Source: an uncultured Clostridia bacterium | GTDB taxonomy: Bacteria > Bacillota > Clostridia > TANB77 > CAG-508 | Reading direction: 5' to 3' | NCBI GenBank assembly: GCA_944386655.1 | Contig: CALXBX010000009.1 | Location: forward strand, 67,833 to 131,832 | DNA: 64,000 bases | Shown here: piece by piece, positions 6,965 to 56,953 of the stretch | Layout: each line of letters starts with the position of its first letter | Numbering within the stretch: the first letter of the stretch is position 1 | Notes under the pieces: model-generated | Databases searched by the model: none | Seen by the model: the letters and a program-made list of their open reading frames with translations, nothing else | Told to the model about the DNA's origin: nothing | Program-made: the position numbers and the translations under genes

Positions 6965-7109
6965 AAATGCGAACAATGGAAAAAAATACCATTGTTCTTT
7001 TTTTGCGTTTTTTTGCGAATTGGAAAAAAAAGAAAGAATTTTATTTCATAATTCCAGAAAATATAACACATACTACAATTATAAAATAAAAAAAGGAGGA
7101 AAAATTTTT

Positions 7110-8180: not shown

Positions 8181-8251
8181 AAAAGAAAAGTGTTTCCTTG
8201 AAAAAGCAAGGTAAACACTTACATAGCTGTGTAATACAAGGAGAAAAAATA

Positions 8252-8866: not shown

Positions 8867-8879
8867 TTGTGCAATTTAG

Positions 8880-8908
8880 GGACGTTCCTTAAATTGCATT
8901 CCTAAAGT
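8880..8908. repeat. palindromic repeat, GGGACGTTCC-core family (copy a)
   Basis: tgcaatttaGGGACGTTCCttaaattgca; same family at 29422, 29532, 47996, 48044, 50165, 55564. Confidence 0.8.
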
Positions 8909-8929
8909 TCATGAAAGGAAAGAATAAAA

Positions 8930-19121: not shown

Positions 19122-19159
19122 AAGCTAAATGAATCTTAGGAAAGGAACGTGTAAGAAAA

Positions 19160-20005
19160 ATGGCAGTTGTCGCTTTTTGGAGTAATGAAGAAAAAGAAAC
19201 GGGACAATCTTTATCTATGGTTGCACTAACTACTTATATGGCAATAGAACATAATTACCGTATATTAGAAATTAGTACCGGTTTTCAAGACACAACAGTG
19301 GAGGATTCTTATTGGGATTTAGAAAAAACAGAAAATTTAGTAAAAAACTTAACAAATAAGAAAAAAGAAGAAGTTGTTTTTGAATCTGGCATAGAAGGAT
19401 TAGTAAAAATTATTACAAGTGGAAAAACTTCTACTGCAATTATATCTAATTATACCAAAATTGTATTTAAAGATAGATTAGATGTGCTATTAGCGCCAAA
19501 GACAAAAAACTATGAAGAATATAAAGAAATAGCTCAATATTATGCAGATATTCTACAAGTAGCTAATCGAAATTATGATTTGGTATTTATAGATATTTCT
19601 AAAAAGATGCCACAAGAGCAAATTGATAAAATATTAGAAATGGCAGATGTAATAGTTGTAAATATTACTCAAAAATTGAAAATGATTAATCGCTATACAG
19701 AGCTTAGAGAACAAAATCCATTTTTTAAGAAAAATAATATTTTAATTAATATTGGACGTTATGATAAATTCTCTAAATATAATGTAAAAAATATTTCTAG
19801 GTATATGCGTGAAAAGAAAAGTGTACTTGCAGTTCCTTATAATACTTTATTTTTTGAAAGCTGCAGTGAAGGAAAAGTAGCAGATTTTTTTGTAAGATTA
19901 AGAACAGCAGATGCAGAAGATAGAAACGGAGTTTTTATGCAGGAAATAGACAGATTTGCAAAAGCTTTAATCTATAAATTACAGGAGTTACAAATGAAAT
20001 TATAA
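19160..20005 (+). CDS. second TadZ/CpaE-like deviant ParA/MinD-fold protein
   Basis: VAFWSNEEKETGQSLSMVAL in Walker A position, YDLVFIDIS, ADVIVVNIT typical MinD/ParA spacing. Confidence 0.5.
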   Translation: MAVVAFWSNEEKETGQSLSMVALTTYMAIEHNYRILEISTGFQDTTVEDSYWDLEKTENLVKNLTNKKKEEVVFESGIEGLVKIITSGKTSTAIISNYTKIVFKDRLDVLLAPKTKNYEEYKEIAQYYADILQVANRNYDLVFIDISKKMPQEQIDKILEMADVIVVNITQKLKMINRYTELREQNPFFKKNNILINIGRYDKFSKYNVKNISRYMREKKSVLAVPYNTLFFESCSEGKVADFFVRLRTADAEDRNGVFMQEIDRFAKALIYKLQELQMKL

Positions 20006-20036
20006 TAGCCCTAAAGAAAGGAGCTTAGAAAAGATT

Positions 20037-22008
20037 ATGATAATAAATCTACTATTGATTATTGTGGTGCTATTAGGTGCAGGTTTCCTAATTGCACGTA
20101 ACTTAATGAAAAAGCAAAATCAAAAGGCAGAAGAACAAGTTCATGTGGATGATAAAACTTATACATTAGAGGTAATGACTGCCTTTGTAAAGAAAAGACT
20201 AGATGAAATTACAAAAATCAACCTTTATGATATTGGTCTTTCAGAAGAAGAGTTAAAAAGAAGAAAGAACAAAAAGTATGAATTAAAAAAGGCTTTAAAA
20301 GGTTGTACTTATGGAGATGTAAACGATAAAAAGTATGTAAAAGAATTGATTTATGATATGCTTGCAAAAGAATATGGTGTTACAGAAGTCAATGTATCAC
20401 AAGCTATTCCTTTTGATGTACCATCTCTACTTACAGCACAAGATAAATTTGATATTATTTTATATATGTATAAAAATGAATTTGGCTATGAAGCACTTAC
20501 AGAAATTATGAAAAAGTACGATTTGGCCAGATTAAAATATGTCTCTGGAGAAACAAAGCCTTGCTATGTTATTACAGAAGAAGAAATTAATGACATATTT
20601 GAAAAAGAAAATTTTGTACTTTCTTTCCAAGATAAATTAAATGTAGTAGTACAAAGAATTTATCAACATTATAAAGGTTATAGCAGTATAGATGAAATTA
20701 GAGATATGAACATTGATGGTATTTCTGGTGGTGTATCAGGACTTCCAGAAAGCTTCTTGAGTCAGGTAGCACAAACAGATAGTGATTATTTAGGACAAAT
20801 TGTAGAACATAAAGTACCGCGTGCTTGTGATAGTATTTGGATTATGTTCCAAGGTAAATCGATTAGACTTGCTTTCCTTTCTTTTGGAACAGAGGCAGAA
20901 TTAAAAAGAGTGTGCCAGAATATTTATAAATACAATAACCCAGGACAGTTATCCGATACCAATGGTTATAAGATTAACGAAATGAAAGATGGTTCTCGTG
21001 TTGTAGTAGTAAGACCAAGTATGTCTGAAACATGGGCATTCTTTGTTAGAAAATTCGACGTAAAACGTGCTACATTGGAACAAATTGTTCGTTTCCCAGG
21101 AAAAGAAGAAACCATAGACTTACTAAAATACTTAGTAAAAGGAGCAAGAATTATTTCTCTTACAGGAGAGCAAGGTTGCCGGAAAAACAACTATGCTGAT
21201 GGCTATGATAGAAAATATATACGAAACTATGAACCTTCGTATTACAGAAACGGCGTTCGAGCTTCACTTAAGAAAAATATACCCAACCAGAAACATTTTG
21301 TCTATGCGTGAGACAGAAACTATCTCTGGACAAGAGTGTTTGGACGTTCAGAAGAAAACTGACGGTTCCGTTAATATCATTGGTGAGGTTGCAACAGACC
21401 CTGTAGCATCTTGGATGATTCAATCTGCACAGGTTGCATCTAAATTTACCTTATTTACCCACCATGCTAAAACATTCCCAGACTTAGTAACTGCACTTCG
21501 TAACTCTATGCTTCGTGCTGGAGTGTTCAAAGACGAAAGAACAGCAGAAGAGCAAGTTGTGCAAGTATTAAACTTTGATATTCACTTAGTAAAAGACTTT
21601 AGAGGAAGAAGATACATAGAAAGAGTAACAGAATGTATACCAGTAGAAGACAAAAATGAGTATACCTTTGACCATAGAAAAGAAACTACATTAGAAGGTA
21701 AATTCGACAAATTCATGGATAATGCAACTTATTACTTCTCTAAAACAACAAATAGAGAGTTATATCATTATAGAAATATTCTAGAATATCATGATGGAGA
21801 ATATGTACTTACAAACCCAATTTCTGATAAAAACATTAGAGAAATGTTAGTAAATATGGATGACACAGATGCAGAAGAGTTTGAAAAATTTGTAGAAAGA
21901 AACTGGGGCAAGAAGATAAGCAAATATGATGATGAGAAAAAAACAGAAGAAGTAACGAAGAAACGTACTAGAAGAACAAAGCAAAACATGAATCCAGCAG
22001 AAGCTTAA
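20037..22008 (+). CDS. tadA: TadA/CpaF (VirB11-family) secretion ATPase; +1 frameshift inside Walker A at 21180
   Basis: ORF 20037..21311 reads TGEQGCRKNN…, ORF 21193..22008 reads MLMAMIEN…RITETAFELHL…IIGEVATDP…FTHHAKTF (CpaF-like). Removing c21180 restores the Walker A GEQGCGKTTMLMAM. Confidence 0.7.
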
Positions 22009-22052
22009 AGAAAGATACAAAACAAAATAGTAGAGGGAGGTAGCTAAAAAAC

Positions 22053-24134
22053 ATGAATACACAAATGCTAATGTATTTAATGATTGGCTGTGGAGTAATA
22101 TTATTTGCTATTATTGCTGCATTTATTGTAATGCAGAAAAATAACAAAGAAAGAAAATACATAGAGCAATTACGTGAAGGTACTAAAACCTCTACTTTTT
22201 CTACAGAAATTCTTTATCAAAAATTATATGTATTTTATTTAAAAACGCCATTTTTAAAACGATATTTATTAAAGTTAAGAAGAAGATTAGAGATTATTAA
22301 TATTGATGATGAGTACCTAACAAGAATGCAGTCTGCTAAAATTTTAACGAGGTCACTTGTTTTAGTTATTCCTATTACAATTGCCATTATCGTATTAACT
22401 AGTCAAAATTTATTATTAATGAGTATATTACTTATTTTTGAAATTTTCTTATTAGATACTTTTATTGATGGTAGAGTAGATAAAATTGATAATAATTTGT
22501 TAAAACAACAAATTAATTTCTTCTCAGAAATTAGACATGCTTATCATGAATTTAATATGGTAGAAGAGGCTATTTATCAAACAGCACAAGATGATGATAA
22601 CCCAGAAATGGCAAGACAAGCAGAGAAGATATATGAAGTATTAATTTCAGACGACCCAGAATCGGAACTAGAAAAATATTATGATGTGGCACCAAATAGT
22701 TACTTAAAAGAATTTGCAGGTGTTTCGTACTTAACAAAAGAATTTGGTGATAGAAAAGTAGATGGGGCATCTCTTTATTTAAAAAACTTAAATAATATTA
22801 CACAAGAGATGCAGCTAGAAATTTTAAAAAGAGATAAATTAGACTATGTTTTTCAAAGTTTATCTGTCATTGCTATTGTTCCTATGTTATGCTTAGAGCC
22901 AATTAAGAACTGGGCAATTTCGCAGTTTAGCTTTGTAGAAAGTTTCTACAATGGTAAAGGCGGTATGTTAGTTCAAATCCTTATTTTGGTAGCTACTTTC
23001 GTTTGTTATATATTAACTAGAAAATTGAAAGATAACGGTTCTACTGCAAAAAATACCAAGAATACAGAAAATCCATGGCAAGAAAAATTATATAAAATTG
23101 GCATTGTGAAGAAAATAGTGGATTTATTTATTCCTAAAGAGGGAACAAAAGAAGATAGAAAAATTAAAACACTTATGAAAAATGCAGCAAGTAAAGATAA
23201 AATTCAATGGATTTATATTAACCGTTTATTACTGTGCATTGTATCTTTCTTTGTAGCGTTATTCCTATTTGGACAAATGCATCAATTGGCAATTAATAAT
23301 GTTTATACAGAACCAACGCAAACCTATGATATTATTGGGCAAATGTCGGAAAAAGATAGACTAGCGGCAATGGAAGTTACAGAATCGGATAATAAATATA
23401 TAGAAAGATTTAAAAATCAAAATCCACTAGAGCAATCTGATATAGAAAGAGCAATGGAAAGAGGAATTGTGGATGATGTTTATTTAGAAAGTACAGCAGA
23501 TGAAATAGAAACAGCAGCAGAAAGAATTATGGAAAAAATTGCACTTGTTAATAGCGAATATTTAAGTTGGCTAGAAGTATTAGGTTCTATGCTAATTGCG
23601 CTAATTGCTTACATGATGCCAATTTGGATGCTAATTTTCCAAACAAAAATGAGGCAATTAGAAATGGAAGATGAAATTATGCAATTCCAAACCATTATTC
23701 TAATGCTAATGAGAATAGAAAGGGTAAATGTAGAAATTATATTAGAGTGGCTAGAAAGATATTCTAATATTTTCAAAGATCCTATCAGCAAGTGTGTAAA
23801 TAACTATGAAAGTGGAGCATGGGAAGCTTTAGAGGCGATGAAAGAAGACGTTACCTATCCACAATTTATCCGAATTATAGAAAGTTTGCAAGCAGCTGTA
23901 GAAAAAATACCAATTACAGACGCTTTTGATGAATTGGATACAGAAAGAGATTATTATCAAGAAAAAAGAAAAGAATCTAACGAAAGATTAATATCTAGAA
24001 AAGGCATGATCGGAAAGGCAATAGGATTTGCACCAATGATACTACTATTTGTAGGATATTTAATTATACCATTAGTATTTATTGGACTAACCAGTATGAC
24101 ATCTTCCTTTAGTTCTATGTCAGCTACTTTATAG
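22053..24134 (+). CDS. TadB-TadC fusion (tandem GspF-like platform membrane protein, 693 aa)
   Basis: Two repeats of helical cytoplasmic domain + TM hairpins; immediately follows tadA. Confidence 0.6.
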   Translation: MNTQMLMYLMIGCGVILFAIIAAFIVMQKNNKERKYIEQLREGTKTSTFSTEILYQKLYVFYLKTPFLKRYLLKLRRRLEIINIDDEYLTRMQSAKILTRSLVLVIPITIAIIVLTSQNLLLMSILLIFEIFLLDTFIDGRVDKIDNNLLKQQINFFSEIRHAYHEFNMVEEAIYQTAQDDDNPEMARQAEKIYEVLISDDPESELEKYYDVAPNSYLKEFAGVSYLTKEFGDRKVDGASLYLKNLNNITQEMQLEILKRDKLDYVFQSLSVIAIVPMLCLEPIKNWAISQFSFVESFYNGKGGMLVQILILVATFVCYILTRKLKDNGSTAKNTKNTENPWQEKLYKIGIVKKIVDLFIPKEGTKEDRKIKTLMKNAASKDKIQWIYINRLLLCIVSFFVALFLFGQMHQLAINNVYTEPTQTYDIIGQMSEKDRLAAMEVTESDNKYIERFKNQNPLEQSDIERAMERGIVDDVYLESTADEIETAAERIMEKIALVNSEYLSWLEVLGSMLIALIAYMMPIWMLIFQTKMRQLEMEDEIMQFQTIILMLMRIERVNVEIILEWLERYSNIFKDPISKCVNNYESGAWEALEAMKEDVTYPQFIRIIESLQAAVEKIPITDAFDELDTERDYYQEKRKESNERLISRKGMIGKAIGFAPMILLFVGYLIIPLVFIGLTSMTSSFSSMSATL

Positions 24135-24152
24135 GAAAATGGGTGATGAAAA

Positions 24153-24782
24153 ATGGAAAATGCGTCAAAAGCACTGATTATGGCAGGTGGAATATTTATT
24201 GCCATATTAGTAATAACTCTTTTAGTATTTTTTTATAACAATATAGTAACTGTTCAAAATGCAGATGAGCAGGCAGAAATCATAGAACAATCGGCAGAAT
24301 TTAATAAGCAATATGATGTATATAATAGAAATAATTTATATGGAAGCGAAGTTTTATCATTAGCAAATAAAATGGAGGATTACAATAGAAAAGAAGCAGC
24401 AGAAAAAGGTTATCCAGAAATGGAAATGGAAGTAACCATTAATGACAATGTAGGAACCTATTTTACACGTGGAACTTATTCTGCTCAGCAATTGCAAAAT
24501 ACGCTAGCAAATTTACAAGCAAAAGAAGAGGAATATGCAAATGTTTCTTATTGTGGTAGAAGAATTAGTGATTTATCTACTATGAGAACAAATGAGTTAC
24601 AACAATTATTTAAAGATAACAACAATACAGGAAAACTTGCAGAAGCACAAGCAGTCATTACAAAATATGTTACGCTAAAAGCAGAAGAGACAGAAATGAG
24701 AACAAAAGGATTTCGATGTACACAAGTAGTATATGATGACCAGACAGGTAGAATTGTTTTAATGAAATTTGCATCTACCTAG
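24153..24782 (+). CDS. minor pilin-like protein (MENASKAL family)
   Basis: N-terminus MENASKALIMAGGIFIAILVITLLVF; C-terminal FRCTQVVYDDQTGRIVLMKF shared with paralogs. Confidence 0.5.
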   Translation: MENASKALIMAGGIFIAILVITLLVFFYNNIVTVQNADEQAEIIEQSAEFNKQYDVYNRNNLYGSEVLSLANKMEDYNRKEAAEKGYPEMEMEVTINDNVGTYFTRGTYSAQQLQNTLANLQAKEEEYANVSYCGRRISDLSTMRTNELQQLFKDNNNTGKLAEAQAVITKYVTLKAEETEMRTKGFRCTQVVYDDQTGRIVLMKFAST

Positions 24783-24845
24783 AGAAAAGCGAAGAAAACT
24801 GTAATTTTGTTTTAAAGGTACAACGTAGGAAAGGAAGGGTGAAAA

Positions 24846-25355
24846 ATGGAAAATGCATCAAAGGCATTGCTAATGGCTGCTGCCATTTTGTTAGGAATTA
24901 TGATTATTTCTGTTGGCGTTGCTATTTTTAACACCCTTTCTGGTTTTAGTCAATCTACCATAGCACGAATGCAAGAAAAACAAGTAGCAGAGTTTAATAG
25001 TAATTTTACAAAATATTATGGACAAATAGATGGAAAAGCTATTCAACTAACAATTCATGATATTATAACTGTGGCTAACTTTGCAAAACAGAGTAATATA
25101 GAGAATGAATTGCAAGAAGAAACCGGGTATAACGAATATACCAATTATGTACAAGTAGATGTTAAAATTGGAGGAACAACTATTACAAAACTAGAAAAAC
25201 AGGATGTTAGTACGTATCAAACTTTAATTCAGAATAACAGTTTAGTAGCAGATGAAAATGGAAAATTAACGCAGACAAAGTATTTTATTTGTACCAATTT
25301 GCTTTATAGTGAACAAACAGGTCGAGTTATGTATATCTCTTTTTCAGATAATTAA
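24846..25355 (+). CDS. minor pilin-like protein (MENASKAL family)
   Basis: MENASKALLMAAAILLGIMIISVGVAIF…; C-terminal YFICTNLLYSEQTGRVMYISF. Confidence 0.5.
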   Translation: MENASKALLMAAAILLGIMIISVGVAIFNTLSGFSQSTIARMQEKQVAEFNSNFTKYYGQIDGKAIQLTIHDIITVANFAKQSNIENELQEETGYNEYTNYVQVDVKIGGTTITKLEKQDVSTYQTLIQNNSLVADENGKLTQTKYFICTNLLYSEQTGRVMYISFSDN

Positions 25356-25441
25356 ATTTGTAAAATTTGGTACTAAAATGTAAAAAAAAGTCATTGCAAA
25401 ATGGAAATAATGATGTTATAATAAAAAAAGGAAGAGACAAT

Positions 25442-25870
25442 ATGAAAAAAACATTTTTAATTTTATGTTGTAGTATTATTCTTCTAGTAATTGTTTTTTC
25501 ATTTCTATATTATAATTATCAAGCTGGTATAGCACAGGCACAAAAAAATAATCAGGAATACGAAAGCTATACTACCAACCAAATATTAGGTTCTAGCTTA
25601 ATGACATTAATGAATAAGGCTAGTAATGATAATGAAAAAAATAATGTAGAAAAAGATGCAGAAGGAATGTATATAGAAAATGATACGAATTCTATAAAGA
25701 TAGAAGTAAAGTTTTTAGAAGCAGATATCATAGTAAGTATGGAAAAAATACAAAGCTTAGGAGAAGAACAATTCTTAAAAAATTATCGTAGCATGTCATT
25801 TTCATGTACAAAAAAAGAGTATCATGAAAAAACAAAACAAATCAAATATTTATTATTTGAACAAGTGTAG
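25442..25870 (+). CDS. small membrane protein
   Basis: MKKTFLILCCSIILLVIVFSF… single N-terminal TM; the listed ORF extends upstream without an RBS. Confidence 0.4.
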   Translation: MKKTFLILCCSIILLVIVFSFLYYNYQAGIAQAQKNNQEYESYTTNQILGSSLMTLMNKASNDNEKNNVEKDAEGMYIENDTNSIKIEVKFLEADIIVSMEKIQSLGEEQFLKNYRSMSFSCTKKEYHEKTKQIKYLLFEQV

Positions 25871-25949
25871 TTATTAATTTTCATAAGGAGAAACCTTATG
25901 AAGTAAATATATAAATATATTATTATATAATCAAAGGAGGAAATTTATT

Positions 25950-26387
25950 ATGGAGAATGCATCAAAAGCATTAATTATTGCAGGAGCTATTATATTAGCA
26001 ATTTTAATTATAGCGCTAGGAATGGCGGTATTTAATATGGCATCTAACCCAGCACAAGATGCTGCAGCAAGTATTGAATCACAGGCGGCACAAGCTTTTA
26101 ATTCAACATTTGAGCCATATATTAAAACAAATATTACAGGATCTAGTGTACGTTCTTTATATGATGCTGTAAGACAAAATAATGTTAGAAACGCATCAGA
26201 CGAATCTATGATAATTACAATAGATGGAGCAACAACAGCAGCAGATATTAACACAAAAAGAGCAGCCATCCAAACAGGAAAGAGATATGATGTAACAGCA
26301 GATTATAGTACATCAACAGGATATATTACCACTATTACTGTTACAGAAGCTGGAAGCTCTAGCGGTGGTTCAGGTAGCGGTTCATAA
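25950..26387 (+). CDS. minor pilin-like protein (MENASKAL family)
   Basis: RBS aaaggagg; MENASKALIIAGAIILAILIIALGMAVF…; Gly/Ser-rich C-terminus. Confidence 0.5.
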   Translation: MENASKALIIAGAIILAILIIALGMAVFNMASNPAQDAAASIESQAAQAFNSTFEPYIKTNITGSSVRSLYDAVRQNNVRNASDESMIITIDGATTAADINTKRAAIQTGKRYDVTADYSTSTGYITTITVTEAGSSSGGSGSGS

Positions 26388-26412
26388 ACAAAAAAAGTAA
26401 AGGATATAAGTT

Positions 26413-27153
26413 ATGGAAAATGCGGTAGAAGCTATTAAAATGGCATTTGCTGTTATCGTCTTTGTTATAGCTTTGTCTGTCAGTATGTTTACACTTACTC
26501 AGGTAAAAGCAACATCAGATATAGTTTTATATACAGAGGATGAATTAAATTATTACGATTTTCAAGAAGCTACAAATGCTGGTGAAGAAAATAGAATTGT
26601 AGGATTAGAAACTATTATTCCTACTTTGTATAAGTATTATAAAGAAAATTATACGGTGATTTTCCGTGAGGGAAATTACGATTATACAACAGGTCAGTTC
26701 TCTAATGTAAGTTATATGAAATTGTATGAAACTCCATCTAATGTAAATTTATGGACAAGTTCCTATGCTACGTTAGTAAATAACAAATATGGAGAAGGAA
26801 CCATTACTACCATTAGAGGAAATAGACAAATATTTTCTTTTGACTTAGATGAGGAAACTTTAAGGCATGAAGCATGGACAGGAAGCAACGACAAAATCAA
26901 GAATAATTTAGATTGTTTTTTGACAGGGGAAAGTTATTATAATCCTAATAATAATGAAGAATATATTGATTATGGAGCAAGCAAAAACGTTGGAGTAGGT
27001 GGATTTATAGCTCAATATGGTAATAGTAGATTTGTAGAAACCATAGGAGAATACACTTATAATAGTACACAAACAGAAGATAGCACAGTAGAGGCATCTG
27101 TAAACGCAAGAAAAAAAAGAATTATCATTTTTACTCGCATCAAAAATTCTTAG
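26413..27153 (+). CDS. minor pilin-like protein (MENAVEAIKM variant)
   Basis: MENAVEAIKMAFAVIVFVIALSVSMF… then about 215-aa extracellular domain. Confidence 0.45.
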   Translation: MENAVEAIKMAFAVIVFVIALSVSMFTLTQVKATSDIVLYTEDELNYYDFQEATNAGEENRIVGLETIIPTLYKYYKENYTVIFREGNYDYTTGQFSNVSYMKLYETPSNVNLWTSSYATLVNNKYGEGTITTIRGNRQIFSFDLDEETLRHEAWTGSNDKIKNNLDCFLTGESYYNPNNNEEYIDYGASKNVGVGGFIAQYGNSRFVETIGEYTYNSTQTEDSTVEASVNARKKRIIIFTRIKNS

Positions 27154-27176
27154 AATCGAAGTAAGGAGGAAGAAAT

Positions 27177-27701
27177 ATGGGAGATAGTTTAATTACCATT
27201 ATTGCAATATTTTTAGCAGCCATCTTAATGTTCGTGTTTCCACTAATGTCTATGTCAGAAAGAACAGATGATGTATCCCAACTTGCAGTACAAACAGCTA
27301 CTACAGAGTTTGTAGATACTATTAGAACAACAGGAAAATTAACATTAGACGATTATGATAAATATATTCAAACAATTTCATCAACAGGAAATTCCTTTCA
27401 AGTGGATATGTTAGTACAAGTATTGGATGAGAATCCTGGAGTAAAAACAACACAAGCAGAGATGACAAAAATAGGAGAAAACTTATATTATAATTTATAT
27501 ACTAGCCAAATAGAAGATACTTTGCAAAGTAATGGAAGAATTACTTTAAAAGAAGGAGATTTGGTATCTGTATCTGTAAAAAATACAAATCAAACAATCT
27601 CACAATTATTGAAAAATTTCTTCTATCAAATAGCAGGAAATGATACATATCAAATAGCTGCACAGCATGCTGGTATGGTAACCGTAAATGGTACAAAATA
27701 G
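27177..27701 (+). CDS. TadE-like pseudopilin (N-terminal TM)
   Basis: RBS aaggagg; MGDSLITIIAIFLAAILMFVFPLMSM…. Confidence 0.4.
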   Translation: MGDSLITIIAIFLAAILMFVFPLMSMSERTDDVSQLAVQTATTEFVDTIRTTGKLTLDDYDKYIQTISSTGNSFQVDMLVQVLDENPGVKTTQAEMTKIGENLYYNLYTSQIEDTLQSNGRITLKEGDLVSVSVKNTNQTISQLLKNFFYQIAGNDTYQIAAQHAGMVTVNGTK

Positions 27702-27780
27702 AGACAATAAAGATTAGAGTGAATGGTTAGAAAAAAGATCTAACTACTACCATTCTAATCTTTTTTAGAAAGGAAAACAA

Positions 27781-29424
27781 ATGAAATTACAACATTTAGC
27801 TATTATATTTGTTATTATCATATTACCTATTTCTATGGTAGTAACAGCATATATTCAAACGCAAATAGATACAATAAACTTGCAAACAACTTATACATCT
27901 AAATTGCAGAATGCAACTTATGATGCTATTAAAGCTTTTCAGCTAAATACGATTAATAATAAATATTCTAGTGTCAGTGACTCTAAAATTAGAGATATAG
28001 AAGCATCTATTTCTACTTTTTTTAATTCACTTGGTACGAAAATGGGAGAAAATGGAATAGATCAAGAGTCTTTAAATGATTTTGTGCCGGCAATTTTATA
28101 TGTCATGTATGATGGTTATTATATTTATGGAAAATATAGAAATGAAAGTACAGCTAGTTATCAATATGGCTTAAAACCATATATTTATTATTCTTGTCGT
28201 TATGTAAGAGGAACAGATGACTTTGTAGTAAATTATAGTTTAGATAATGCCATTACTGTTTTTGGAAATATAGATGGAACCTATGTAACACGTTCAGGAT
28301 ACCTAATTAATCCTAGTTTAGTTAGCAACATTAATGAGGCAAATAAAACTTTAGTATATGATGGAGAAACAATAGAAAAAGAAATTTTAACAGAGCAAAT
28401 TGTATTATTAAATGAGGCAGGAGAAGTAATTAATAATTCTTCACCAGTTACTTATCAATATACGGTATATCAAAACGCTAAGATTTATTATGATCCTGGT
28501 GCAACAGATGGTATGACTTATTTTTGGTATACAGATAATAAAAAACAAAGAATCTACGATCAAGACATTTTAAATTATGTAACAAGTATGACGATAGGGG
28601 GAAATTTATATAGCGAGAGTGCTTTTCAATATTATAAAGACGCTTATGAATTTAGTACTTGGGTAAATGAACACATGGGAGATGTTACACAAAGTAATGC
28701 AAGAGATATGGATGGAAATAGCATTTCAGATTTTGCAGTAAATACAGGGGAAGAGAAGATATTCCGTTTGAATAGCATTAATAATCCTTTGTTAGATGGC
28801 TCTACCTTTAATGAAAACAGAATAAGTGTTATTAGAAAAAGCATTCAAACAAATTTAGCATCAGCAATTGCAAATTATAATCAAGGAGCAAATAATAGTT
28901 ATCAATTTGTATTGCCAATTTTTTCAGAAGAAGATTGGGACAAATTAGTAAATAACATTTCCGTTGCAACTTTTATGCAAGGTGTACCAATAGGAACAAA
29001 ATATTTTAATAACTATTGTATTATTACCAATGATAAAAATGAAGAAGTAGTAACAGAAGATTCACTTTATGTCATTACAGAAGATGGAGAAGTACATTTG
29101 CCAACTTGTCAAGATATTATAGGAGAAAATGTTATAGGAGTTTATAGTAATGTTTCTTTTGAAAGACAGTCTATTCATATATCAGATACCTATGAAGTGC
29201 ATTATTATCCACATGCGAATAGTAAATGTTATCATTGTATGGTAAATGTGGCTGCCACCTACGATATAGATGGTTTAATTGGGGGAACAATAGAAATTTT
29301 TGATTCTAGTGGAACAAATCAAACTAGAAATATAAAAGGTACAAGTTTAAGAAAACAATATTTAACAGCTTTAGGAAGAGAACGCTACGATTTATATCGT
29401 ACCAATGACTATTTTGGTGTGTGA
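27781..29424 (+). CDS. TadG-like large membrane-anchored pilus-associated protein (547 aa)
   Basis: N-terminal TM MKLQHLAIIFVIIILPISMVV then large extracellular domain; last gene of the cluster; stop overlaps repeat copy b. Confidence 0.4.
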   Translation: MKLQHLAIIFVIIILPISMVVTAYIQTQIDTINLQTTYTSKLQNATYDAIKAFQLNTINNKYSSVSDSKIRDIEASISTFFNSLGTKMGENGIDQESLNDFVPAILYVMYDGYYIYGKYRNESTASYQYGLKPYIYYSCRYVRGTDDFVVNYSLDNAITVFGNIDGTYVTRSGYLINPSLVSNINEANKTLVYDGETIEKEILTEQIVLLNEAGEVINNSSPVTYQYTVYQNAKIYYDPGATDGMTYFWYTDNKKQRIYDQDILNYVTSMTIGGNLYSESAFQYYKDAYEFSTWVNEHMGDVTQSNARDMDGNSISDFAVNTGEEKIFRLNSINNPLLDGSTFNENRISVIRKSIQTNLASAIANYNQGANNSYQFVLPIFSEEDWDKLVNNISVATFMQGVPIGTKYFNNYCIITNDKNEEVVTEDSLYVITEDGEVHLPTCQDIIGENVIGVYSNVSFERQSIHISDTYEVHYYPHANSKCYHCMVNVAATYDIDGLIGGTIEIFDSSGTNQTRNIKGTSLRKQYLTALGRERYDLYRTNDYFGV

Positions 29425-29450
29425 ACTTTAGGGACGTTCCTTAAAGTTCA
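29422..29450. repeat. palindromic repeat, GGGACGTTCC-core family (copy b)
   Basis: tgaactttaGGGACGTTCCttaaagttca. Confidence 0.8.
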
Positions 29451-29531: not shown

Positions 29532-29560
29532 TGAACTTTAAGGAACGTCCCTAAAGTTCA
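29532..29560. repeat. palindromic repeat, GGGACGTTCC-core family (copy c, inverted relative to b)
   Basis: tgaactttaaGGAACGTCCCtaaagttca = exact reverse complement of copy b, 80 bp away. Confidence 0.8.
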
Positions 29561-46666: not shown

Positions 46667-47983
46667 TTGTTTAAAACCATTAAAAATGCCTTAAAAACAC
46701 CAGACGTACGTAAAAAATTAATGTATACATTATTACTAATCGTTATTTTTAGATTAGGATGTTACATTACCGTACCAGGAGTAGATTCTTTTCAATTAGC
46801 AGAAGCTTTTTCAGGACAAGGAATCTCATCATTAATAGATATGATATCTGGAGGTGCATTCTCTAGATTATCTATTTTTGCAATGTCTATTAGCCCATAT
46901 ATTACGGCATCTATTGTGATACAATTGTTAGGAATGGTAATACCTTCTTTAGAAAGATTAATGAAAGAAGGAGGAGAAGATGGTAGAAACAAAATCAATC
47001 GTTATACCAAAATTCTTACCATTGTGTTAGCATTAATTGAAGGCGTAGGTGTCTACCTTGCTTATCGTTCTTCTGGAATCTTTATTGATACAGGATTCGT
47101 AACAGGAGCAACAGTAGTTATTTCCTTAATGGCTGGAACAGCATTACTTATGTGGCTAGGAGACCAAATTACCAATAAAGGAATAGGTAATGGAATTTCT
47201 ATTATCATCTTTGTAGGTATTATTGCAGGCTTGCCAAGTGGAGTAGTTAGTATTTGGAATTTAATCTTTGCAGGAGGAGTATTCTCCACAACAGGATTAT
47301 TAACAGCACTTGGAATTATAGTGGGAGCAATTATTTTAGTAGCAGGAGTTGTATTTGTACAACAAGCAGAAAGAAAAGTACCAGTACAATATTCTAAAAG
47401 AGTAGTAGGAAGAAAAATGGTAGGAGCACAAAATACACATATACCATTAAAGTTAGCAATGGCAGGAGTTATGCCAATTATCTTTGCCTCTTCCTTTATG
47501 ACATTCCCTGCTATGATTATTCAAATGTTTGTACCAGATATAGCAAGTCAAACAGGATTTTGGAATGTAATCTATAATTTCTCTATGGCAACATCTTCAT
47601 CTAGCGTAGGAATTGGTTATACCATTGCAAACGCAATTGTATATTTGTTGTTAATTATAGGATTTACTTATTTCTATACTTATGCAACATTCAATCCAGC
47701 AGAAGTATCTAATAATATCAAGAAAAACGGAGGATTTATACCAGGAATTCGTGCAGGAAAACCAACTACAGACTATTTAGCCTCTATTATCTCAAAACTA
47801 ACATTATTTGGAGGATTTTTCTTAGCAGTGATTGCTATCCTACCAATGCTTATGAGATTTACAAGTCTAAACTTAGCCTTTGGTGGAACATCTATCTTGA
47901 TTGTAGTAGGAGTTGCATTAGAGACAGTACAACAATTAGAATCACAACTTGTCATGAGACATTATAAAGGATTCTTAGAATAA
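46667..47983 (+). CDS. secY: preprotein translocase subunit SecY
   Basis: 10-TM SecY sequence; TTG start. Confidence 0.9.
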   Translation: MFKTIKNALKTPDVRKKLMYTLLLIVIFRLGCYITVPGVDSFQLAEAFSGQGISSLIDMISGGAFSRLSIFAMSISPYITASIVIQLLGMVIPSLERLMKEGGEDGRNKINRYTKILTIVLALIEGVGVYLAYRSSGIFIDTGFVTGATVVISLMAGTALLMWLGDQITNKGIGNGISIIIFVGIIAGLPSGVVSIWNLIFAGGVFSTTGLLTALGIIVGAIILVAGVVFVQQAERKVPVQYSKRVVGRKMVGAQNTHIPLKLAMAGVMPIIFASSFMTFPAMIIQMFVPDIASQTGFWNVIYNFSMATSSSSVGIGYTIANAIVYLLLIIGFTYFYTYATFNPAEVSNNIKKNGGFIPGIRAGKPTTDYLASIISKLTLFGGFFLAVIAILPMLMRFTSLNLAFGGTSILIVVGVALETVQQLESQLVMRHYKGFLE

Positions 47984-47995
47984 AGAAATAAACTT

Positions 47996-48029
47996 GAACT
48001 TTGGGGACGTTCCTTAAAGTTCTTTTTTT
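47996..48029 (+). terminator. palindromic repeat copy d (GGGGACGTTCC core) acting as secY terminator
   Basis: gaactttgGGGACGTTCCttaaagttc + ttttttt. Confidence 0.7.
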
Positions 48030-48043
48030 GAAATTTGCAATTT

Positions 48044-48070
48044 GCAATTTAGGGACGTTCCTTAAATTGC
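48044..48070. repeat. palindromic repeat copy e
   Basis: gcaatttaGGGACGTTCCttaaattgc, preceded by duplicated tgcaattt. Confidence 0.8.
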
Positions 48071-48073
48071 AAA

Positions 48074-48176
48074 ACATTATGGAAATAAATGACCAATTAA
48101 AAAGGAAAATATAAGAAAAAAGGAACAAGATAAAGGTATAATAAGCCTTATAAAAAAGAACAAGGGGGATAAAAGA
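48074..48176 (+). promoter_or_regulatory. conserved type-B leader of pilin paralogs
   Basis: Similar to 16359-16478 and 55644-55762, including a gataaaggTATAATaagcc -10-like element. Confidence 0.5.
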
Positions 48177-49382
48177 ATGCAAAAGAATAAACAAAGAGGA
48201 ATTACGTTAATTGCTTTAGTAGTAACAATTATTATACTAATCATTTTAGCAGGTGTCAGTATTCAAATGATAGTAGGGGAAGATGGTTTAATTACTATGG
48301 CGAAGAACGCCAAAGAAAATACCGGATTAGCAGAGGTACAAGAAGAAAAAGGACTGAATGAATTAACGAAGGATATGAATAATTATGTACCGATGAAAGT
48401 AGCAGAAGCAAGACAAAAAGGTGAGTTTTTTTATGAGAATACATTATTAGAAGATGATTTAGGAAATAGGTTGAAAGTACCTAATGGATTTAAAGTGGCA
48501 TCTGATTCAGCAACGAAAGTAGAAGACGGAGTGGTAATAGAAGATAGTGACGGAAATCAGTATGTATGGATACCTGCAAAAACAGGAGAAGGAATAATTA
48601 TTCATACAACTGTTGGAGATAGAAGAATGGTTTATACAAGAGTTGCCTATAGTAAGAATATACCAACAGACGAGATAGATGAAGAAACCAATAGTAAAAA
48701 GATAATTCATTCCGATACTATTAACCATTATTATACACAAGCAATGTCAACTGATGAAGAAAAAAGTGTAGATGCAAATGGAGGATACTATATAGGAAGA
48801 TATGAGGCAGGAGATAAAGAGTCAACAGAGGCAAACAAAATGAGAACGGCTACTTCAAATCAAGAAAACACAATAACGATAAAAAAAGGACAAGCGCCAT
48901 ATAATTATGTTACATATACAAATGCCAAAAAATTAGCAGAGAATATGGGTACTGTACAAGAATATACTACTACAGAAACAAAATTACCAAGTAGTTATGC
49001 ATGGGATACAGCAATAAGTTTAATACAAATAAAAAATAATGATTATGGACAAGTTTCAGAAGAAGGAAATTATAAAGATACTACTTTTTCTTATATAGAC
49101 GTAGCAGGAACAGAGCAAATTAAAGAAATTAAAGAACCTGGTGTTGTGGTTACGACAGGTCAAACGATAGCAGTAAGTAATATTTATGATTTAGGCGGAA
49201 ATATGAGAGAATATACTACAGAAGAGTATTCTGATGAGACTCTTCCAGTTACAGATAGAGGCGGATACTTTAATTGTAATTCTTTTGATTTTGCTGCGGG
49301 CTATCGAGATTATAATGATGGTACAGGAGCAGATAAGTATGGGATGAGAGTGGCTTTGTATTTTAAGGTAGAAAATGAATAA
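48177..49382 (+). CDS. type IV pilin-like protein with FGE-sulfatase-like C-terminal domain, inserted between secY and adk
   Basis: MQKNKQRG/ITLIALVVTIIILIILAGVSIQMIVGEDGLITMAKNAKENT; C-terminus …TDRGGYFNCNSFDFAAGYRDYNDGTGADKYGMRVALYF. Confidence 0.7.
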   Translation: MQKNKQRGITLIALVVTIIILIILAGVSIQMIVGEDGLITMAKNAKENTGLAEVQEEKGLNELTKDMNNYVPMKVAEARQKGEFFYENTLLEDDLGNRLKVPNGFKVASDSATKVEDGVVIEDSDGNQYVWIPAKTGEGIIIHTTVGDRRMVYTRVAYSKNIPTDEIDEETNSKKIIHSDTINHYYTQAMSTDEEKSVDANGGYYIGRYEAGDKESTEANKMRTATSNQENTITIKKGQAPYNYVTYTNAKKLAENMGTVQEYTTTETKLPSSYAWDTAISLIQIKNNDYGQVSEEGNYKDTTFSYIDVAGTEQIKEIKEPGVVVTTGQTIAVSNIYDLGGNMREYTTEEYSDETLPVTDRGGYFNCNSFDFAAGYRDYNDGTGADKYGMRVALYFKVENE

Positions 49383-49518
49383 AAGAGAAAATGCTTATCA
49401 TGCAAAGAAAATAAAACCACATTTTACATATTATGTAAAATGTGGTATAATAATATGTAGGAACTTTATTTTGGAAGAATTTCCGAGAAAATTAAACGGA
49501 AAGAAAAGGAGAAAAAAC

Positions 49519-50109
49519 ATGTCAGCACAGGTAAGAAAAGTAGCAAAGAAAAAAGAATACTACAGAGGAGCAGATCGGTTTAGCATAGGAGACAATGTTG
49601 TTTCCTTTGCAATAGGTGCTATCATTATGTTTAGTATCTTTGTTCTGTTCATGATGGACAAATCCGCACTCCAAGAAACAATGAAAAATGTTACCTTGAA
49701 AAAGGAAGAAATTCCCATTGCTCAGGAGAAGATTACTGTTCAAGAGGAAAAGAAAGAAGAAACTGCAGAGGAGATTATGATAGAAGACAAAGAGGAGCCA
49801 GAAGCAGTAACTTTCTATACAGAAGAAAATGTAGACTTACTGGCAAGACTTATGCATGCAGAAGAAGGTGTTCTGCTGCAAAGGCAGAGCATCGAAGATG
49901 CAGAACTTGCACATAAGTTATGTGGATCAGTAATCTTGCATCGGACAGAAATTGGCTACTCAGGAAGCTCCGGAAATAGTGAAGCAATGGGCAGAAGAAC
50001 TACTGCGTGACGGTCCGATTGGACCGGAAAATATGATTTATCAATCTGAGTTCCCTCAAGGGCAGGTCTATACACAGATTGATAATCAGTTCTTTGGTTG
50101 CTTGAAGTA
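49519..50109 (+). CDS. membrane protein with GC-rich C-terminal region (possible cell-wall-hydrolase-like LARLMHAEEG motif); +1 frameshift at 49942
   Basis: MSAQVRK… single TM. Listed ORF stops at 50010; removing c49942 (CGG) opens the frame to 50109. GC content and codon usage deviate in 49850-50100. Confidence 0.4.
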
Positions 50110-50164
50110 GAAGCAAGGAGAAAGCAATGCAATCTCTTTGCTTTTCTCCTTTTAGAGGAACCTC

Positions 50165-50193
50165 TGCAATTTAAGGAACGTCCCTAAATTGCA
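50165..50193. repeat. palindromic repeat copy f (inverted orientation)
   Basis: tgcaatttaaGGAACGTCCCtaaattgca. Confidence 0.8.
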
Positions 50194-50294
50194 AGTTCAT
50201 TTAAAAAATTCAAAAAATCTCTATACTTTTGGGACAAAAAATGCTATAATAAACATAGTTGTGAATTGTAAAACATAGGAAGAGGAGGAAAAAA

Positions 50295-50966
50295 ATGTAT
50301 ATTGTTATGCTAGGAAAACCTGGTTCAGGAAAAGGAACCGTTGGAAAAATGTTGTCAGAGGCTTTGCATATGATACACATTTCTAGTGGAGAGTTATTTA
50401 GAAGTTATATTAGTAAGGCTGGAGAGATTGGAAAACAAATAGAAGAGTATGTGGCAAAGGGAGAATTAGTGCCAGATGAACTTGCTATTCAATTAGTAGA
50501 AAAGAGATTATTAGAGGCAGATTGTAAAAATGGAGTTATACTAGATGGTTTTCCAAGAACAGTAAAGCAAGCAGAAGCTTTAGATAGTTTTCTAAAAAGA
50601 CATCATCAAAAAATTAATATTGCAGTGGAATTGGATTTATCTGATAAAGATATTATAGATAGAATTGTAAAAAGAAGAGTATGTTCTAATAAAGATTGTA
50701 GAGAAGTATATAATTTAGAATTTAAAAAGCCAAAAGTAAAAGGAATTTGTGATGTTTGTGGCAGTCCTTTAGAGCAAAGACCAGATGATAGTATAGAAAC
50801 AGTAAAACAAAGATTACAAGTACATTATGCAACAGCAGGAAAATTAGTAGAATATTATAAAGCCCAAGATTTATTATACACAGTTAAATTAAATATTCAT
50901 TCTGGAAAAACTTCAGAAGATGTAGCAAAAGAGGTAGAAAAATATTTAGAAACAAATCCATCATAA
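50295..50966 (+). CDS. adk: adenylate kinase (zinc-lid type)
   Basis: GKPGSGKGT P-loop; Cys4 lid CSNKDC…CDVCG. Confidence 0.9.
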   Translation: MYIVMLGKPGSGKGTVGKMLSEALHMIHISSGELFRSYISKAGEIGKQIEEYVAKGELVPDELAIQLVEKRLLEADCKNGVILDGFPRTVKQAEALDSFLKRHHQKINIAVELDLSDKDIIDRIVKRRVCSNKDCREVYNLEFKKPKVKGICDVCGSPLEQRPDDSIETVKQRLQVHYATAGKLVEYYKAQDLLYTVKLNIHSGKTSEDVAKEVEKYLETNPS

Positions 50967-55563: not shown

Positions 55564-55600
55564 ATGAACTTTGGGGACGTTCCTTAAAGTTCATTTTTTG
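55564..55600 (+). terminator. palindromic repeat copy g acting as rplQ terminator
   Basis: atgaactttgGGGACGTTCCttaaagttcat + tttttt. Confidence 0.75.
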
Positions 55601-55643: not shown

Positions 55644-55762
55644 AGAATAATGTCAAAATTATGGAAATAAGTAACCAGCAAAAAGCGAAAATAAAAAATA
55701 AGAAAAAGAAAGATAGAGGTATAATCCTTCTCGTAAGAAAGAAAAGCGAGGAGGATTTTGTC
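55644..55762 (+). promoter_or_regulatory. conserved type-B leader of pilin paralogs
   Basis: Near-identical blocks to 16359-16478; TATAAT at 55720-55725; RBS gaggagg. Confidence 0.55.
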
Positions 55763-56953
55763 ATGTCAAAACAAAAGAAAAATCAAAGAGGGATTACTTT
55801 AATTGCATTGGTGGTAACTATCATTGTGTTAATGATTTTAGCTGGTGTAAGTATTAACATGATAGTAGGAGACAATGGATTGTTAACAAAGGCACAAGAT
55901 GCAGCAGATATATATGAACAGGCAAGTAGTAATGAACAAAGTGCACTAGATAGTTTAGAAGAGATAATGAATGGATATTTAAATGATGATAATCAAGGAG
56001 AAAAAACATTAGTAGAAATGTATGACTCAGGAGAATTAAATATAGGCGATTATGTAGATTATAAAAATCCAACAAGTGGAAGTTATACAGCATATGCAAC
56101 AGACACAGGAGTGGATGATGAAGGTTTTGAATTTAACGCTTATATAACAGATCAAGTATATGATGTTTCAAATAACCAATTAAATTGGAGAGTACTAGGT
56201 AAAGATGAAACTACCGGAGGAATCAAATTAATAGCAGGAAGTCCAATGAAAAGTAATACTGTGATACAAGGAGTAGATGTGCCATATTTATTTATGTATG
56301 GAGCAAAGGCATATGTAAATGGACTAGGCATATTAAATGATATAGGAGCGCTATATAAAAATGAATATGCAATAGATGCTAGAAGTGTAAATATTGAAGA
56401 TATTAATGCTATAACTGGCGTGGAAACAGAAGAGAATATAAAAAATGTAAATTTAAGTGTATATATAAACGGACTACAGTATGGAACACCATATAATTAT
56501 ACAAATCAATATACACCAGAAAGCTGGATAAATGGCAAAAATACAACAGAAATATCAGGAACGGTTGATGGATATGCCTACTTAGTGAATACACAAATAG
56601 ATTCATATCCATATGTGACAGTATCCAATACAAGAGCTTATGAGATGTTGTTTGATAATATAGAATATCAAACAGGAAAAAATTATTGGCTGGCATCATT
56701 TGGAACATATGCTTATCAAAATTTTGTTGGATTTAGTTTAAGTATGGTTGCTGAAAATTTAAAAATTTCTAATATGAGTACCAGTGGTTGTTTTGCTGGA
56801 ATGATGTCTTTTTTTGACTCAGATGATGGTGCTAGTTATGGATATTATGCAGGCGTACGTCCAGTAGTTATTTTAAATCCTAATGTTACACAGGAGCAGA
56901 TACCAGTAATAGAAGATCAAACAGAAGAAACATGGAATGTTTCAGGAAATTGA
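55763..56953 (+). CDS. type IV pilin-like protein (paralog) inserted after rplQ
   Basis: MSKQKKNQRG/ITLIALVVTIIVLMILAGVSINMIVGDNGLLTKAQDA; about 350-aa C-terminal domain ending GVRPVVILN. Confidence 0.65.
   Translation: MSKQKKNQRGITLIALVVTIIVLMILAGVSINMIVGDNGLLTKAQDAADIYEQASSNEQSALDSLEEIMNGYLNDDNQGEKTLVEMYDSGELNIGDYVDYKNPTSGSYTAYATDTGVDDEGFEFNAYITDQVYDVSNNQLNWRVLGKDETTGGIKLIAGSPMKSNTVIQGVDVPYLFMYGAKAYVNGLGILNDIGALYKNEYAIDARSVNIEDINAITGVETEENIKNVNLSVYINGLQYGTPYNYTNQYTPESWINGKNTTEISGTVDGYAYLVNTQIDSYPYVTVSNTRAYEMLFDNIEYQTGKNYWLASFGTYAYQNFVGFSLSMVAENLKISNMSTSGCFAGMMSFFDSDDGASYGYYAGVRPVVILNPNVTQEQIPVIEDQTEETWNVSGN

Follow-up and report, generated by a model that had tools for sequence, protein, structure and literature searches.

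Strain-variable occupancy and dispersed palindromes at the secY-adk junction of an uncultured gut Clostridia bacterium

The junction between secY and adk is among the most conserved gene junctions of bacteria. In the 64,000 nt of contig CALXBX010000009.1 analysed here (referred to as the window), which belong to an uncultured gut Clostridia bacterium and have a guanine and cytosine (GC) content of 31.5%, secY (46667-47983, + strand; Pfam SecY, E 7e-108) and adk (50295-50966, + strand; Pfam ADK, E 8e-46, plus ADK_lid) are separated by 2311 nt. These hold palindromic repeats, a gene for a pilin-like protein with an FGE-sulfatase-like domain and the remains of a cell-wall hydrolase gene. How did this DNA come to lie between secY and adk, and is it a mobile unit? 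A preliminary description of the window had read it as one mobile or recombining cassette, bounded by the palindromes, that targets conserved operon junctions. From a comparison with related genomes and metagenome contigs we arrive at a different reading, which we consider probable: secY and adk flank an accessory islet that varies between strains and is remodelled by recombination at palindromes and short repeats together with exchange between strains, and that is not a self-mobile cassette.

Occupancy and breakpoints of the junction

The secY loci were taken from the 80 closest species genomes and the distance to adk was measured. The closest public genomes are metagenome-assembled genomes labelled uncultured Clostridiaceae or Clostridia; further relatives include Candidatus Merdicola and Clostridium sp. 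CAG:575. Both genes were present on the locus in 68 species, not counting the window's own group, and in 57 of these the gap was shorter than 300 nt. The 2.3 kb in the window are thus indeed an insertion, as the preliminary description had it. What the short gaps of the relatives hold is an unremarkable terminator together with the adk promoter, which is of the extended -10 type. In this clade the junction is a transcription-unit boundary, which explains why inserted DNA is tolerated there. It is also a recurrent docking place for accessory genes throughout the clade, independent of the palindromes: in other species the same junction holds HicAB, an AAA_21 (AbiEii-like) ATPase, a PDDEXK_2 protein, a glycosyltransferase cluster, an FtsX/ABC pair or prophage-like genes (occupied gaps among loci L011-L088, for example L062 5824-6714, L011 7314-8891, L025 5655-6928, L059 7317-12282, L081 4166-7542 and L087 7317-13317), and no copy of the palindrome was found in the loci of these species (978 kb from the 78 nearest species). 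The supposed targeting of conserved operon junctions is not supported, since what separates secY from adk in this clade is a boundary between terminator and promoter, at which other species harbour unrelated accessory genes. One of the most conserved junctions can at the same time be a fast-evolving docking site in small-genome gut Clostridia.

In the window, secY is directly followed by the palindrome P1 and a run of seven T (47995-48029, palindrome 47995-48023, + strand). P1 resembles a repetitive extragenic palindrome (REP), has the sequence TGAACTTTGGGGACGTTCCTTAAAGTTCT with a GAAC/GTTC stem and the core GGGACGTTCC, and is the predicted secY terminator. It is the only strong terminator call on the + strand of the region (fold -14 kcal/mol, z -3.8) and is kept in all close relatives, the empty site described below included. 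A second REP-like palindrome, P2 (48043-48071, + strand, sense orientation; fold -17.3 kcal/mol, z -8), has a GCAA/TTGC stem, and the same palindrome returns inverted as P3 (50165-50193, - strand; core on the + strand GGAACGTCCC). P2 and P3 are the left and right members of an inverted pair that brackets the islet; over 33 nt they are 97% complementary, and the inserted DNA ends in perfect 15-nt terminal inverted repeats (GTTCCTTAAATTGCA...TGCAATTTAAGGAAC). Between them lie the pilin-like gene with its leader, the hydrolase pseudogene and a terminator-like hairpin. P3 is followed by a 37-nt spacer and the adk promoter and leader (50194-50294, + strand; TGcTATAAT at 50242-50250), conserved from about 50226 on in the related loci L115, L223, L009 and L010. 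All parts that had been listed before, namely the repeats, a leader with TATAAT, the pilin-FGE gene, a second gene and a third repeat with a hairpin, could be located at or near their reported positions.

For the closest relatives a tree was computed from 2.3 kb of secY and adk sequence. It contains two clades that are 4.2% apart. The first comprises the window and L217; in the second, L009, L223 and L115 differ by 0.4-0.65% and L010 by 1.5-1.9%. Within this narrow group the junction was found in five states. In L115 the gap is 177 nt and carries P1 and one perfect 28-nt palindrome, i.e. an empty site with a single palindrome, as one would look for on the basis of the preliminary description. 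L223 (1060 nt) has P1, P2, an intact hydrolase gene, the terminator and P3. The window, L217 and others (about 2312 nt) have P1, P2, the pilin-FGE gene, the hydrolase pseudogene, the terminator and P3, an arrangement that more than 15 independent metagenome contigs from several studies have in common. L009 (2456 nt) carries P1, P2, the pilin-FGE gene, a short unrelated open reading frame (ORF), the terminator, P3 and a further segment, cassette B, while L010 (738 nt) has only P1, P2 and cassette B. Cassette B encodes a 122-aa ORF of no known family, has its own promoter and terminator and replaces the 37-nt spacer in L009 and L010. With five allelic states among strains whose flanks are more than 99% identical, the locus would be useful as a strain marker.

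The breakpoints between these states can be read from the palindrome halves. We denote the short half-site (AGGGAC) as S, the long one (AAGGAAC) as L and their reverse complements by a prime, such that P2 is S|L' and P3 is L|S'. The palindrome of the empty site is S|S' (TGCAATTTAGGGAC|GTCCCTAAATTGCA): it consists of the left half of P2 and the right half of P3, continues into the right flank of P3 and yields the junction k-mer TTGCAATTTAGGGACGTCCCTAAATTGCAAAG. It is not a point-mutated P2, because the right half of P2 reads GTTCTTT in the clade of L115. Its hybrid core GGGACGTCCC occurs nowhere else in the 2 Mb of fetched loci, and being absent from the filled alleles it cannot stem from a mis-join of such alleles during assembly. 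The crossover lies inside the central ACGT. In L010, the P2 core and the first bases of its right flank are followed by the sequence that follows P3 in L009, as would be the case after a crossover in TAAATTGCAAAA, the right arm and flank that the two have in common.

A different boundary applies to the pilin module (1.33 kb). Here the window and L223 (as well as L224) differ by 1328 nt with a 5-nt overlap, GCAAA, which is present as a direct repeat on the left (48069-48073, + strand) and on the right (49402-49406, + strand) of the module. The insert is a mosaic, in which a hydrolase pseudogene lies between P2 and P3 and a separate pilin module has its place beside P2. The idea of one cassette was not borne out: there are at least two independently bounded modules, with the hydrolase gene occurring on its own in L223 and the pilin module being bounded by GCAAA.

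Two further patterns point beyond local deletions. Where cassette B is present (about 560 nt) the 37-nt spacer is missing and vice versa, and the distribution of these mutually exclusive alleles cuts across the flank tree. The last 546 nt of the pilin gene (window 48837-49382, L009 8160-8705) are identical across clades whose flanks are 4.2% apart, while the first 660 nt contain 18 differences, all of them in nt 66-660. The identical 3' part looks like a recent recombination tract.

A dispersed hairpin family

The palindrome unit is 29 nt long and has a 13-bp stem and a 3-nt loop (fold -14 to -17 kcal/mol, z -3.8 to -8). Its 10-mer core GGGACGTTCC occurs seven times in the window, compared to 0.16 expected copies, and none of 100 shuffles reached this number. 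A covariance model built from 74 distinct copies found in the window exactly these seven, which score 47-55 bits, whereas no other site exceeds 15 bits. All seven are located at the ends of transcription units. Besides P1-P3 they comprise a palindrome with T-run, the predicted terminator of rplQ, 5' of a second leader-bearing pilin-like gene (55565-55593, + strand; the terminator after rplQ differs in L223), a single copy with GCAA stem after the sortase gene (8870-8898, + strand), and a convergent doublet with an 81-nt spacer and an architecture like that of P2 and P3 (29422-29560, with 29422-29450 on the + and 29532-29560 on the - strand). Palindromes thus also occur behind the sortase gene and behind the last gene of a pilus-like cluster, while three of the five pilin-like paralogs in the window have none nearby. 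A run of six to seven T follows P1 and the copy at 55565; P2 and P3 have no such run. The view that the palindromes are cassette-specific boundaries had to be given up, as they are generic dispersed hairpins that also follow unrelated genes.

A metagenome scan with the apical 19 nt retrieved more than 120 contigs, mostly from human gut and with GC contents of 0.23-0.38; the constancy of the apex among them is in part built into the search, which used these 19 nt as query. The basal stem alternates between GGGA/TCCC, GAAC/GTTC, GCAA/TTGC and longer variants. In the outer stem, 94.6% of the cells are paired across the 74 distinct copies. In 95 cells both sides had changed, against 25 in shuffles, with none of 500 shuffles reaching the observed value and a collapse of the signal in slid controls; these changes fall in few classes, corresponding to few independent events, and the same would be seen with a symmetric protein-binding site.

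At the metagenome loci 166 of the 176 unique sites were intergenic. When the site is read in the GGGACGTTCC orientation, the gene on its 5' side had the same direction in 110 of 158 cases, the median distance from stop codon to core being 24 nt, and a T-rich run followed the hairpin (about 55-75% T in columns 37-40 downstream). The sense strand folds better than the antisense strand by 4.5-5.5 kcal/mol, because one position forms G-U rather than A-C. Judged by their sequence and position, the palindromes fit dispersed 3'-end hairpins of a generic, REP-like kind, many of which are predicted to serve as intrinsic terminators in the G-U orientation. For pairs of palindromes less than 500 nt apart we counted 15 convergent, no divergent and 9 same-orientation cases. 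Pairs at 500 nt or more had no orientation bias and flanked ordinary housekeeping genes. The form S|L' was the normal one for single copies (166 copies versus one S|S' and four L|L' in 942 kb). In other taxa the number of tandem palindromes differed between strains, and there too the sites were indel hot spots.

The family is distributed in a patchy manner. It is present in the species group of the window and in more distant low-GC gut contigs (L097-L216) but absent from the 978 kb of the 78 nearest species, a distribution that suggests that the repeat, or whatever propagates it, has spread horizontally. Among 2.9 million viral contigs only one had the pattern. Rfam searches, by E value for the region and by gathering score for the whole window, returned no family for the palindromes or the leader; the only Rfam match in the window was a tRNA (3345-3416). 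A literature search by sequence strings gave nothing relevant.

The closest known counterparts are the REPs and their doublets (REPINs) of Proteobacteria, which are associated with the transposase RAYT (REP-associated tyrosine transposase). Shared features are short imperfect extragenic palindromes that are dispersed at high density at 3' gene ends, convergent inverted doublets, a tandem copy number that varies between strains, and a role as hot spots of rearrangement and insertion. The present family differs in its low-GC Clostridia host, in lacking a conserved head of the GTAG type, and in the apical 19 nt and a G-T pair that are conserved across taxa while the basal stem switches. Many of its copies moreover carry a T-run and resemble intrinsic terminators, and one doublet encloses genes. 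A tblastn search with two IS200/IS608 TnpA sequences for a RAYT or Y1 transposase had no match in 2.09 Mb of loci, in a test of low sensitivity. Another parallel is provided by the DNA uptake sequences (DUS) of Neisseria and the uptake signal sequences (USS) of Haemophilus, inverted pairs of which double as terminators. In both cases a conserved element of about 10 nt appears as inverted pair in 3' hairpins of hosts with type-IV-filament genes. However, the motif studied here is almost never seen outside the hairpin and occurs about once per 9 kb, a roughly ten times lower density. The hairpins thus appear to be an uncharted REP/REPIN-like family of Firmicutes-type gut bacteria, with an apex conserved across taxa and no Rfam entry.

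Further hairpins were noticed in the fetched loci. A second core type, GGGACAGTCC, is nested inside GGGACGTTCC doublets and shares a GGGGAC motif. Another recurrent hairpin, GTTTTTGGGGACGGAGGAAAAAAAC, contains this motif as well and is also found in the secY-adk gap of species L018. Loci of these two types are L097 7029-7142, L168 3622-3990, L171 3699-3784 and L018 7314-7512.

Explanations for the remodelling

We infer that modules have been lost, replaced and exchanged among near-identical strains in three ways. Recombination between P2 and P3 would account for one deletion that joins the exact centres of the palindromes (L115) and for another with a crossover in the right arm (L010). Recombination between very short repeats would be a second way. 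Homologous exchange between strains would proceed through the conserved secY and adk flanks. The footprints present at the site (a centre-to-centre hybrid, arm-to-arm deletions and a 5-nt repeat) make the mechanism testable in read data. Of the two properties in the phrase "mobile or recombining", recombination agrees with the strain variation at the repeats. For mobility no corresponding gene was found: a Pfam scan of the window's large ORFs, except those for ribosomal proteins, FGE proteins and the pilus cluster, revealed no recombinase, transposase or integrase. The scan found housekeeping and surface proteins only, e.g. RhuM, a GTPase, RNase III, CdaA, TruA, a sortase and cohesin/dockerin proteins, with further matches to Mur ligase, SpoIVB, RsmE, YicC, Gmk and PriA.

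Several points weigh against a strain-variable islet shaped in this way. Whether a given change was a gain or a loss is deduced and to be taken as provisional. The crossover within the 4-nt ACGT at both palindrome centres is finer than usual for illegitimate recombination. For the pilin module, the hydrolase module and cassette B alike, the start is no more than a few nt away from a palindrome's right arm (...TTGCAAA|), and such a common start hints at targeted insertion. Contigs whose GC contents range from 0.23 to 0.38 agree in the G-T position of the stem and in the apical 19 nt, an agreement that suggests a specific trans-acting factor that recognises the hairpin. Finally, the putative assignment of the surface gene as a pilin relies on a motif that scores just under the Pfam cutoff and lacks Glu5.

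These points lead to an alternative that we regard as unlikely but that deserves attention, namely that the palindromes serve a dedicated cassette-exchange system as attachment (att)-like sites, with the gene for its hairpin-specific recombinase or nuclease lying at another place of the genome. Cassettes with a promoter of their own would enter and leave by strand exchange at the palindrome centre, such that the empty site is S|S', a circular intermediate L|L' and the integrated ends are S|L' and L|S'. The model predicts a reciprocal circle junction TGCAATTTAAGGAAC|GTTCCTTAAATTGCA (k-mer CTGCAATTTAAGGAACGTTCCTTAAATTGCAAAAC). It would account for the empty-site palindrome as an exact centre-to-centre hybrid of P2 and P3, for the perfect 15-nt terminal inverted repeats of the inserted DNA, for the start of three modules right after a palindrome arm, for the excess of convergent over divergent short doublets (15 versus 0), and for the conservation of the apical sequence and the G-T pair across taxa. 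On the other hand, S|L' is the standard form of single copies (see above) and therefore in general not a recombination product; the general rule that S|L' represents a recombinant att site was rejected for this reason. There is also no palindrome between the pilin and the hydrolase module. Neither the window ORFs scanned nor the surroundings of the examined homologues revealed a recombinase, apart from one small tyrosine recombinase near a homologue (L089), and the low-sensitivity search in 2.09 Mb gave no Y1 transposase signal. Likewise rejected was the notion that long-range convergent pairs in other taxa delimit cassettes, as pairs at 500 nt or more are without orientation bias and have housekeeping genes inside.

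The tyrosine recombinase gene just mentioned (L089 9659-10405, 248 aa) belongs to another species and lies directly 3' of a pilin-FGE homologue that follows rpmB.

The comparison with integrons is similarly divided. Like attC cassettes, the insert has hairpin-capable imperfect palindromes at its borders, an ...AAC|GTT... centre and hybrid junctions between filled and empty sites. Unlike these, there is no IntI among the window ORFs scanned and no attI, the modules have their own promoter and terminator, a single palindrome pair serves two genes, and the same palindrome is dispersed over the genome as single copies. Insertion sequences that target REPs are known as well, among them IS1397/ISKpn1 and elements of the IS110 family such as IS621. 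With these our locus shares DNA that is inserted within or beside REP palindromes, but the inserted DNA here has no transposase in or near it and its modules are ordinary cellular genes. A broader version of the exchange model, which we put forward as speculation of low probability, would have the hairpins with conserved apex (TTTRGGGACGTTCCTTAAA) and covarying basal stem act as sites of a hypothetical hairpin-specific recombinase or nuclease in several low-GC gut lineages. If true, this would amount to an integron-like but integrase-less dispersed system that moves promoter-bearing cassettes at the ends of transcription units, with the secY-adk islet as one docking site and surface "modular pilins" among its frequent cargo.

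The opposite view, which we also hold to be doubtful, is that the palindromes are incidental. After DNA uptake, homologous recombination in the highly conserved secY and adk flanks would then be all that shuffles alleles between strains, and the modules would originally have entered by unrelated illegitimate events. This agrees with the mutually exclusive alleles with and without cassette B that do not follow the flank tree, with the identical 3' half of the pilin gene across lineages 4.2% apart, and with the unrelated genes at the same junction in species without these palindromes. It leaves unexplained, however, that L115 and L010 have their breakpoints within palindromes and, in particular, how the novel hybrid core GGGACGTCCC arose. 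The indel hot spots at palindromes of other taxa speak against it as well.

Very improbable is that P2 and P3 make the segment invertible and thereby phase-variable, or that the pilin-FGE gene is the target of a diversity-generating retroelement (DGR). Inverted repeats of 33 nt with 97% complementarity do flank a surface-protein gene, but the segment has the same orientation on all of the more than 15 contigs. By its FGE/C-type-lectin fold the protein falls, according to Foldseek, into the same class as the DGR variable proteins TvpA (2y3c) and Mtd (1yu0), and in both the family studied here and these proteins a C-terminal stretch is hypervariable (here between RGG and GFR). In contrast to true DGR targets, this stretch is invariant between strains, whose differences are confined to nt 66-660 of the gene, outside the would-be variable region. 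No invertase, YxDD reverse-transcriptase motif or template repeat was found in the window, nor a template repeat within about 8 kb in five homologue loci. A DGR target was rejected on these grounds.

An ancient fixed arrangement or an assembly chimera can be practically discounted, given five site states, among them an empty site, in relatives whose flanks are 0.4-4.2% apart, an identical arrangement on more than 15 independent contigs from several studies, and a hybrid-core k-mer in L115 that mis-joined reads of filled alleles could not yield; the assembly artefact was rejected accordingly.

Inserted modules and other genes of the window

The pilin module of the islet begins with a leader (about 48073-48176, + strand) that contains a TATAAT (48137-48142) and a GGGGGA ribosome-binding site (about 48164-48169). 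Over 56 nt (48073-48128) it is 73% identical to 55655-55710, with homology running on to 16371-16620, and is thus common to the pilin-like genes at 55763 and 16479. Across species no conservation of the leader was found; leaders are clade-specific. No common 3' end was found among the pilin-like paralogs.

The following ORF (48177-49382, + strand; 401 aa) combines a pilin-like N-terminus with a domain that resembles FGE-sulfatase and C-type lectins. The N-terminus, MQKNKQRG|ITLIALVVTIIILIILAGVSI (RG|ITLIALVV), is similar to a class-III signal, with a basic leader that ends in Gly and a subsequent hydrophobic helix. Pfam FGE-sulfatase (PF03781) is matched by residues 211-392 with 23.7 bits, just above the cutoff of 23.3, and N_methyl (PF07963) reaches 19.8 bits at a cutoff of 21.2, while the paralog at 55763 scores 21.3. 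We found at least 6496 unnamed homologues with 45-57% identity over the full length, many of them with PF03781. In other species these are single genes, located 3' of rpmB or ftsZ or ahead of the spoIIA operon. The family consensus of the N-terminus is [KR]G|ITL[IV]ALVVT...LILAGV, and in all 33 aligned members position +5 is Ala instead of the canonical Glu. An AlphaFold2 model (pLDDT, the predicted local distance difference test, of 75) has an N-terminal helix (residues 6-33), a confident beta-rich domain (70-210) and the FGE-like domain. Its top Foldseek matches are CarF, PorK, TvpA, Mtd, EgtB and PvdO, with E values of 2e-3 or weaker. Relatives were found neither in the phage nor in the plasmid collections.

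Taken together, this supports a predicted modular pilin with a lectin-like head. Modular type IV pilins are known e.g. from Streptococcus sanguinis in form of PilB and PilC (PMC6497953). The agreement includes the short charged leader ending in Gly, the hydrophobic N-terminal helix, a C-terminal module of lectin or adhesin type, and short stand-alone pilins with the same N-terminus alongside. Such pilins are represented in the window by the 63-aa ORF at 16479 and in metagenomes by hundreds of stand-alone homologues of the N-terminal module with 52-93 aa. The proteins differ in the Ala at +5, the N_methyl score just below the cutoff, the graft of an FGE/C-type-lectin-like domain, and the position of the genes as orphans behind housekeeping genes, outside a pil locus. 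The product is probably a binding protein displayed at the surface or on a type IV filament. Extracytoplasmic display and the likeness to the non-enzymatic PorK and TvpA suggest, by analogy, a binding rather than a catalytic role. With more than 6,000 members this unannotated family of pilin-like proteins with lectin heads would be a source of candidate adhesins of uncultured gut commensals.

In the second module a perfect 14-bp hairpin (49411-49451, + strand; -17 kcal/mol, z -6.2) overlaps the hydrolase promoter (TTTACA-17-TGgTATAAT, 11 of 12 promoter matches). In L223 this hairpin directly follows P2. The gene itself, ORF2 (49519-50110, + strand), is a pseudogene of a membrane-anchored (transmembrane) cell-wall hydrolase of SleB type (Hydrolase_2), with an internal deletion of 24 aa and a frameshift near 49960. 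Pfam gave no match for ORF2 even after frame correction, and the assignment by sequence is based on intact homologues of 222-223 aa (P0121-P0124) and on PF07486 in distant relatives. The gene is broken in all strains of the window's clade. Its 3' part has a GC content of 0.41-0.45 over about 49750-50200, compared to 0.315 for the window, and this patch differs between strains that are otherwise about 99% identical. Of the membrane-protein gene with GC-rich 3' part that had been described, the membrane anchor and the GC patch hold, but the gene is not intact. It is followed by a terminator-like hairpin and TTTT (about 50116-50153, + strand; -14.5 kcal/mol), conserved in L009 and L223.

The window contains five genes with this pilin-like N-terminus. 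A paralog with the same leader directly follows rplQ (leader 55655-55762, gene 55763-56953, + strand; 396 aa) and is not present in L223, a point in favour of the preliminary reading. The short stand-alone pilin (16479-16670, 63 aa) was found as exact protein on 11 contigs and is followed by an ORF with GLUG repeats (block 16479-17314). Two paralogs lie directly 5' of an unannotated Tad-like cluster. Following the tRNA at 3345-3416, a pilin-like gene (3707-4237) continues in another frame (4185-4463); 3707-4463 is probably one frameshifted paralog, and its leader is of another type, which it shares with the gene at 14375.

The cluster (17438-29424) resembles Tad or type-IV-filament loci. It encodes a SAF/CpaB-like protein, two ParA/CpaE-like proteins, a polytopic membrane protein of 693 aa, a 547-aa protein and a set of small paralogs, at least four in number, that start with MENASKAL../MENAVEAI.. 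and have a hydrophobic helix (24153, 24846, 25950 and 26413). Except for SAF, the cluster had no match in Pfam, NCBIfam or PDB sequences, including no T2SE and no prepilin peptidase model; NCBIfam and PDB sequence searches with the pilin-like proteins were equally without match. A putative assembly ATPase extends over two overlapping ORFs (20037-21311 and 21193-22008, together 20037-22008) with a change of frame at the apparent Walker-A region, which could be a true frameshift, a pseudogene or a sequencing error.

Of the remaining genes, a RhuM-family gene near the window start (871-1908; Pfam E 8e-107) adjoins a GTPase gene. Just 5' of a gene for an AAA_14/DUF4143 ATPase (12889-14169), four tandem 23-nt units (..AAAAATCACGGAATG..) at 12745-12835 possibly form an array of operators or iteron-like elements. 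A block of surface-protein genes (7020-12731) encodes cohesin-domain proteins, a sortase (8198-8866), an SH3_3 protein, a protein with Big_2 and dockerin domains and a cadherin-like protein, which suggests a cellulosome-like cohesin-dockerin display in a small-genome gut Clostridia bacterium.

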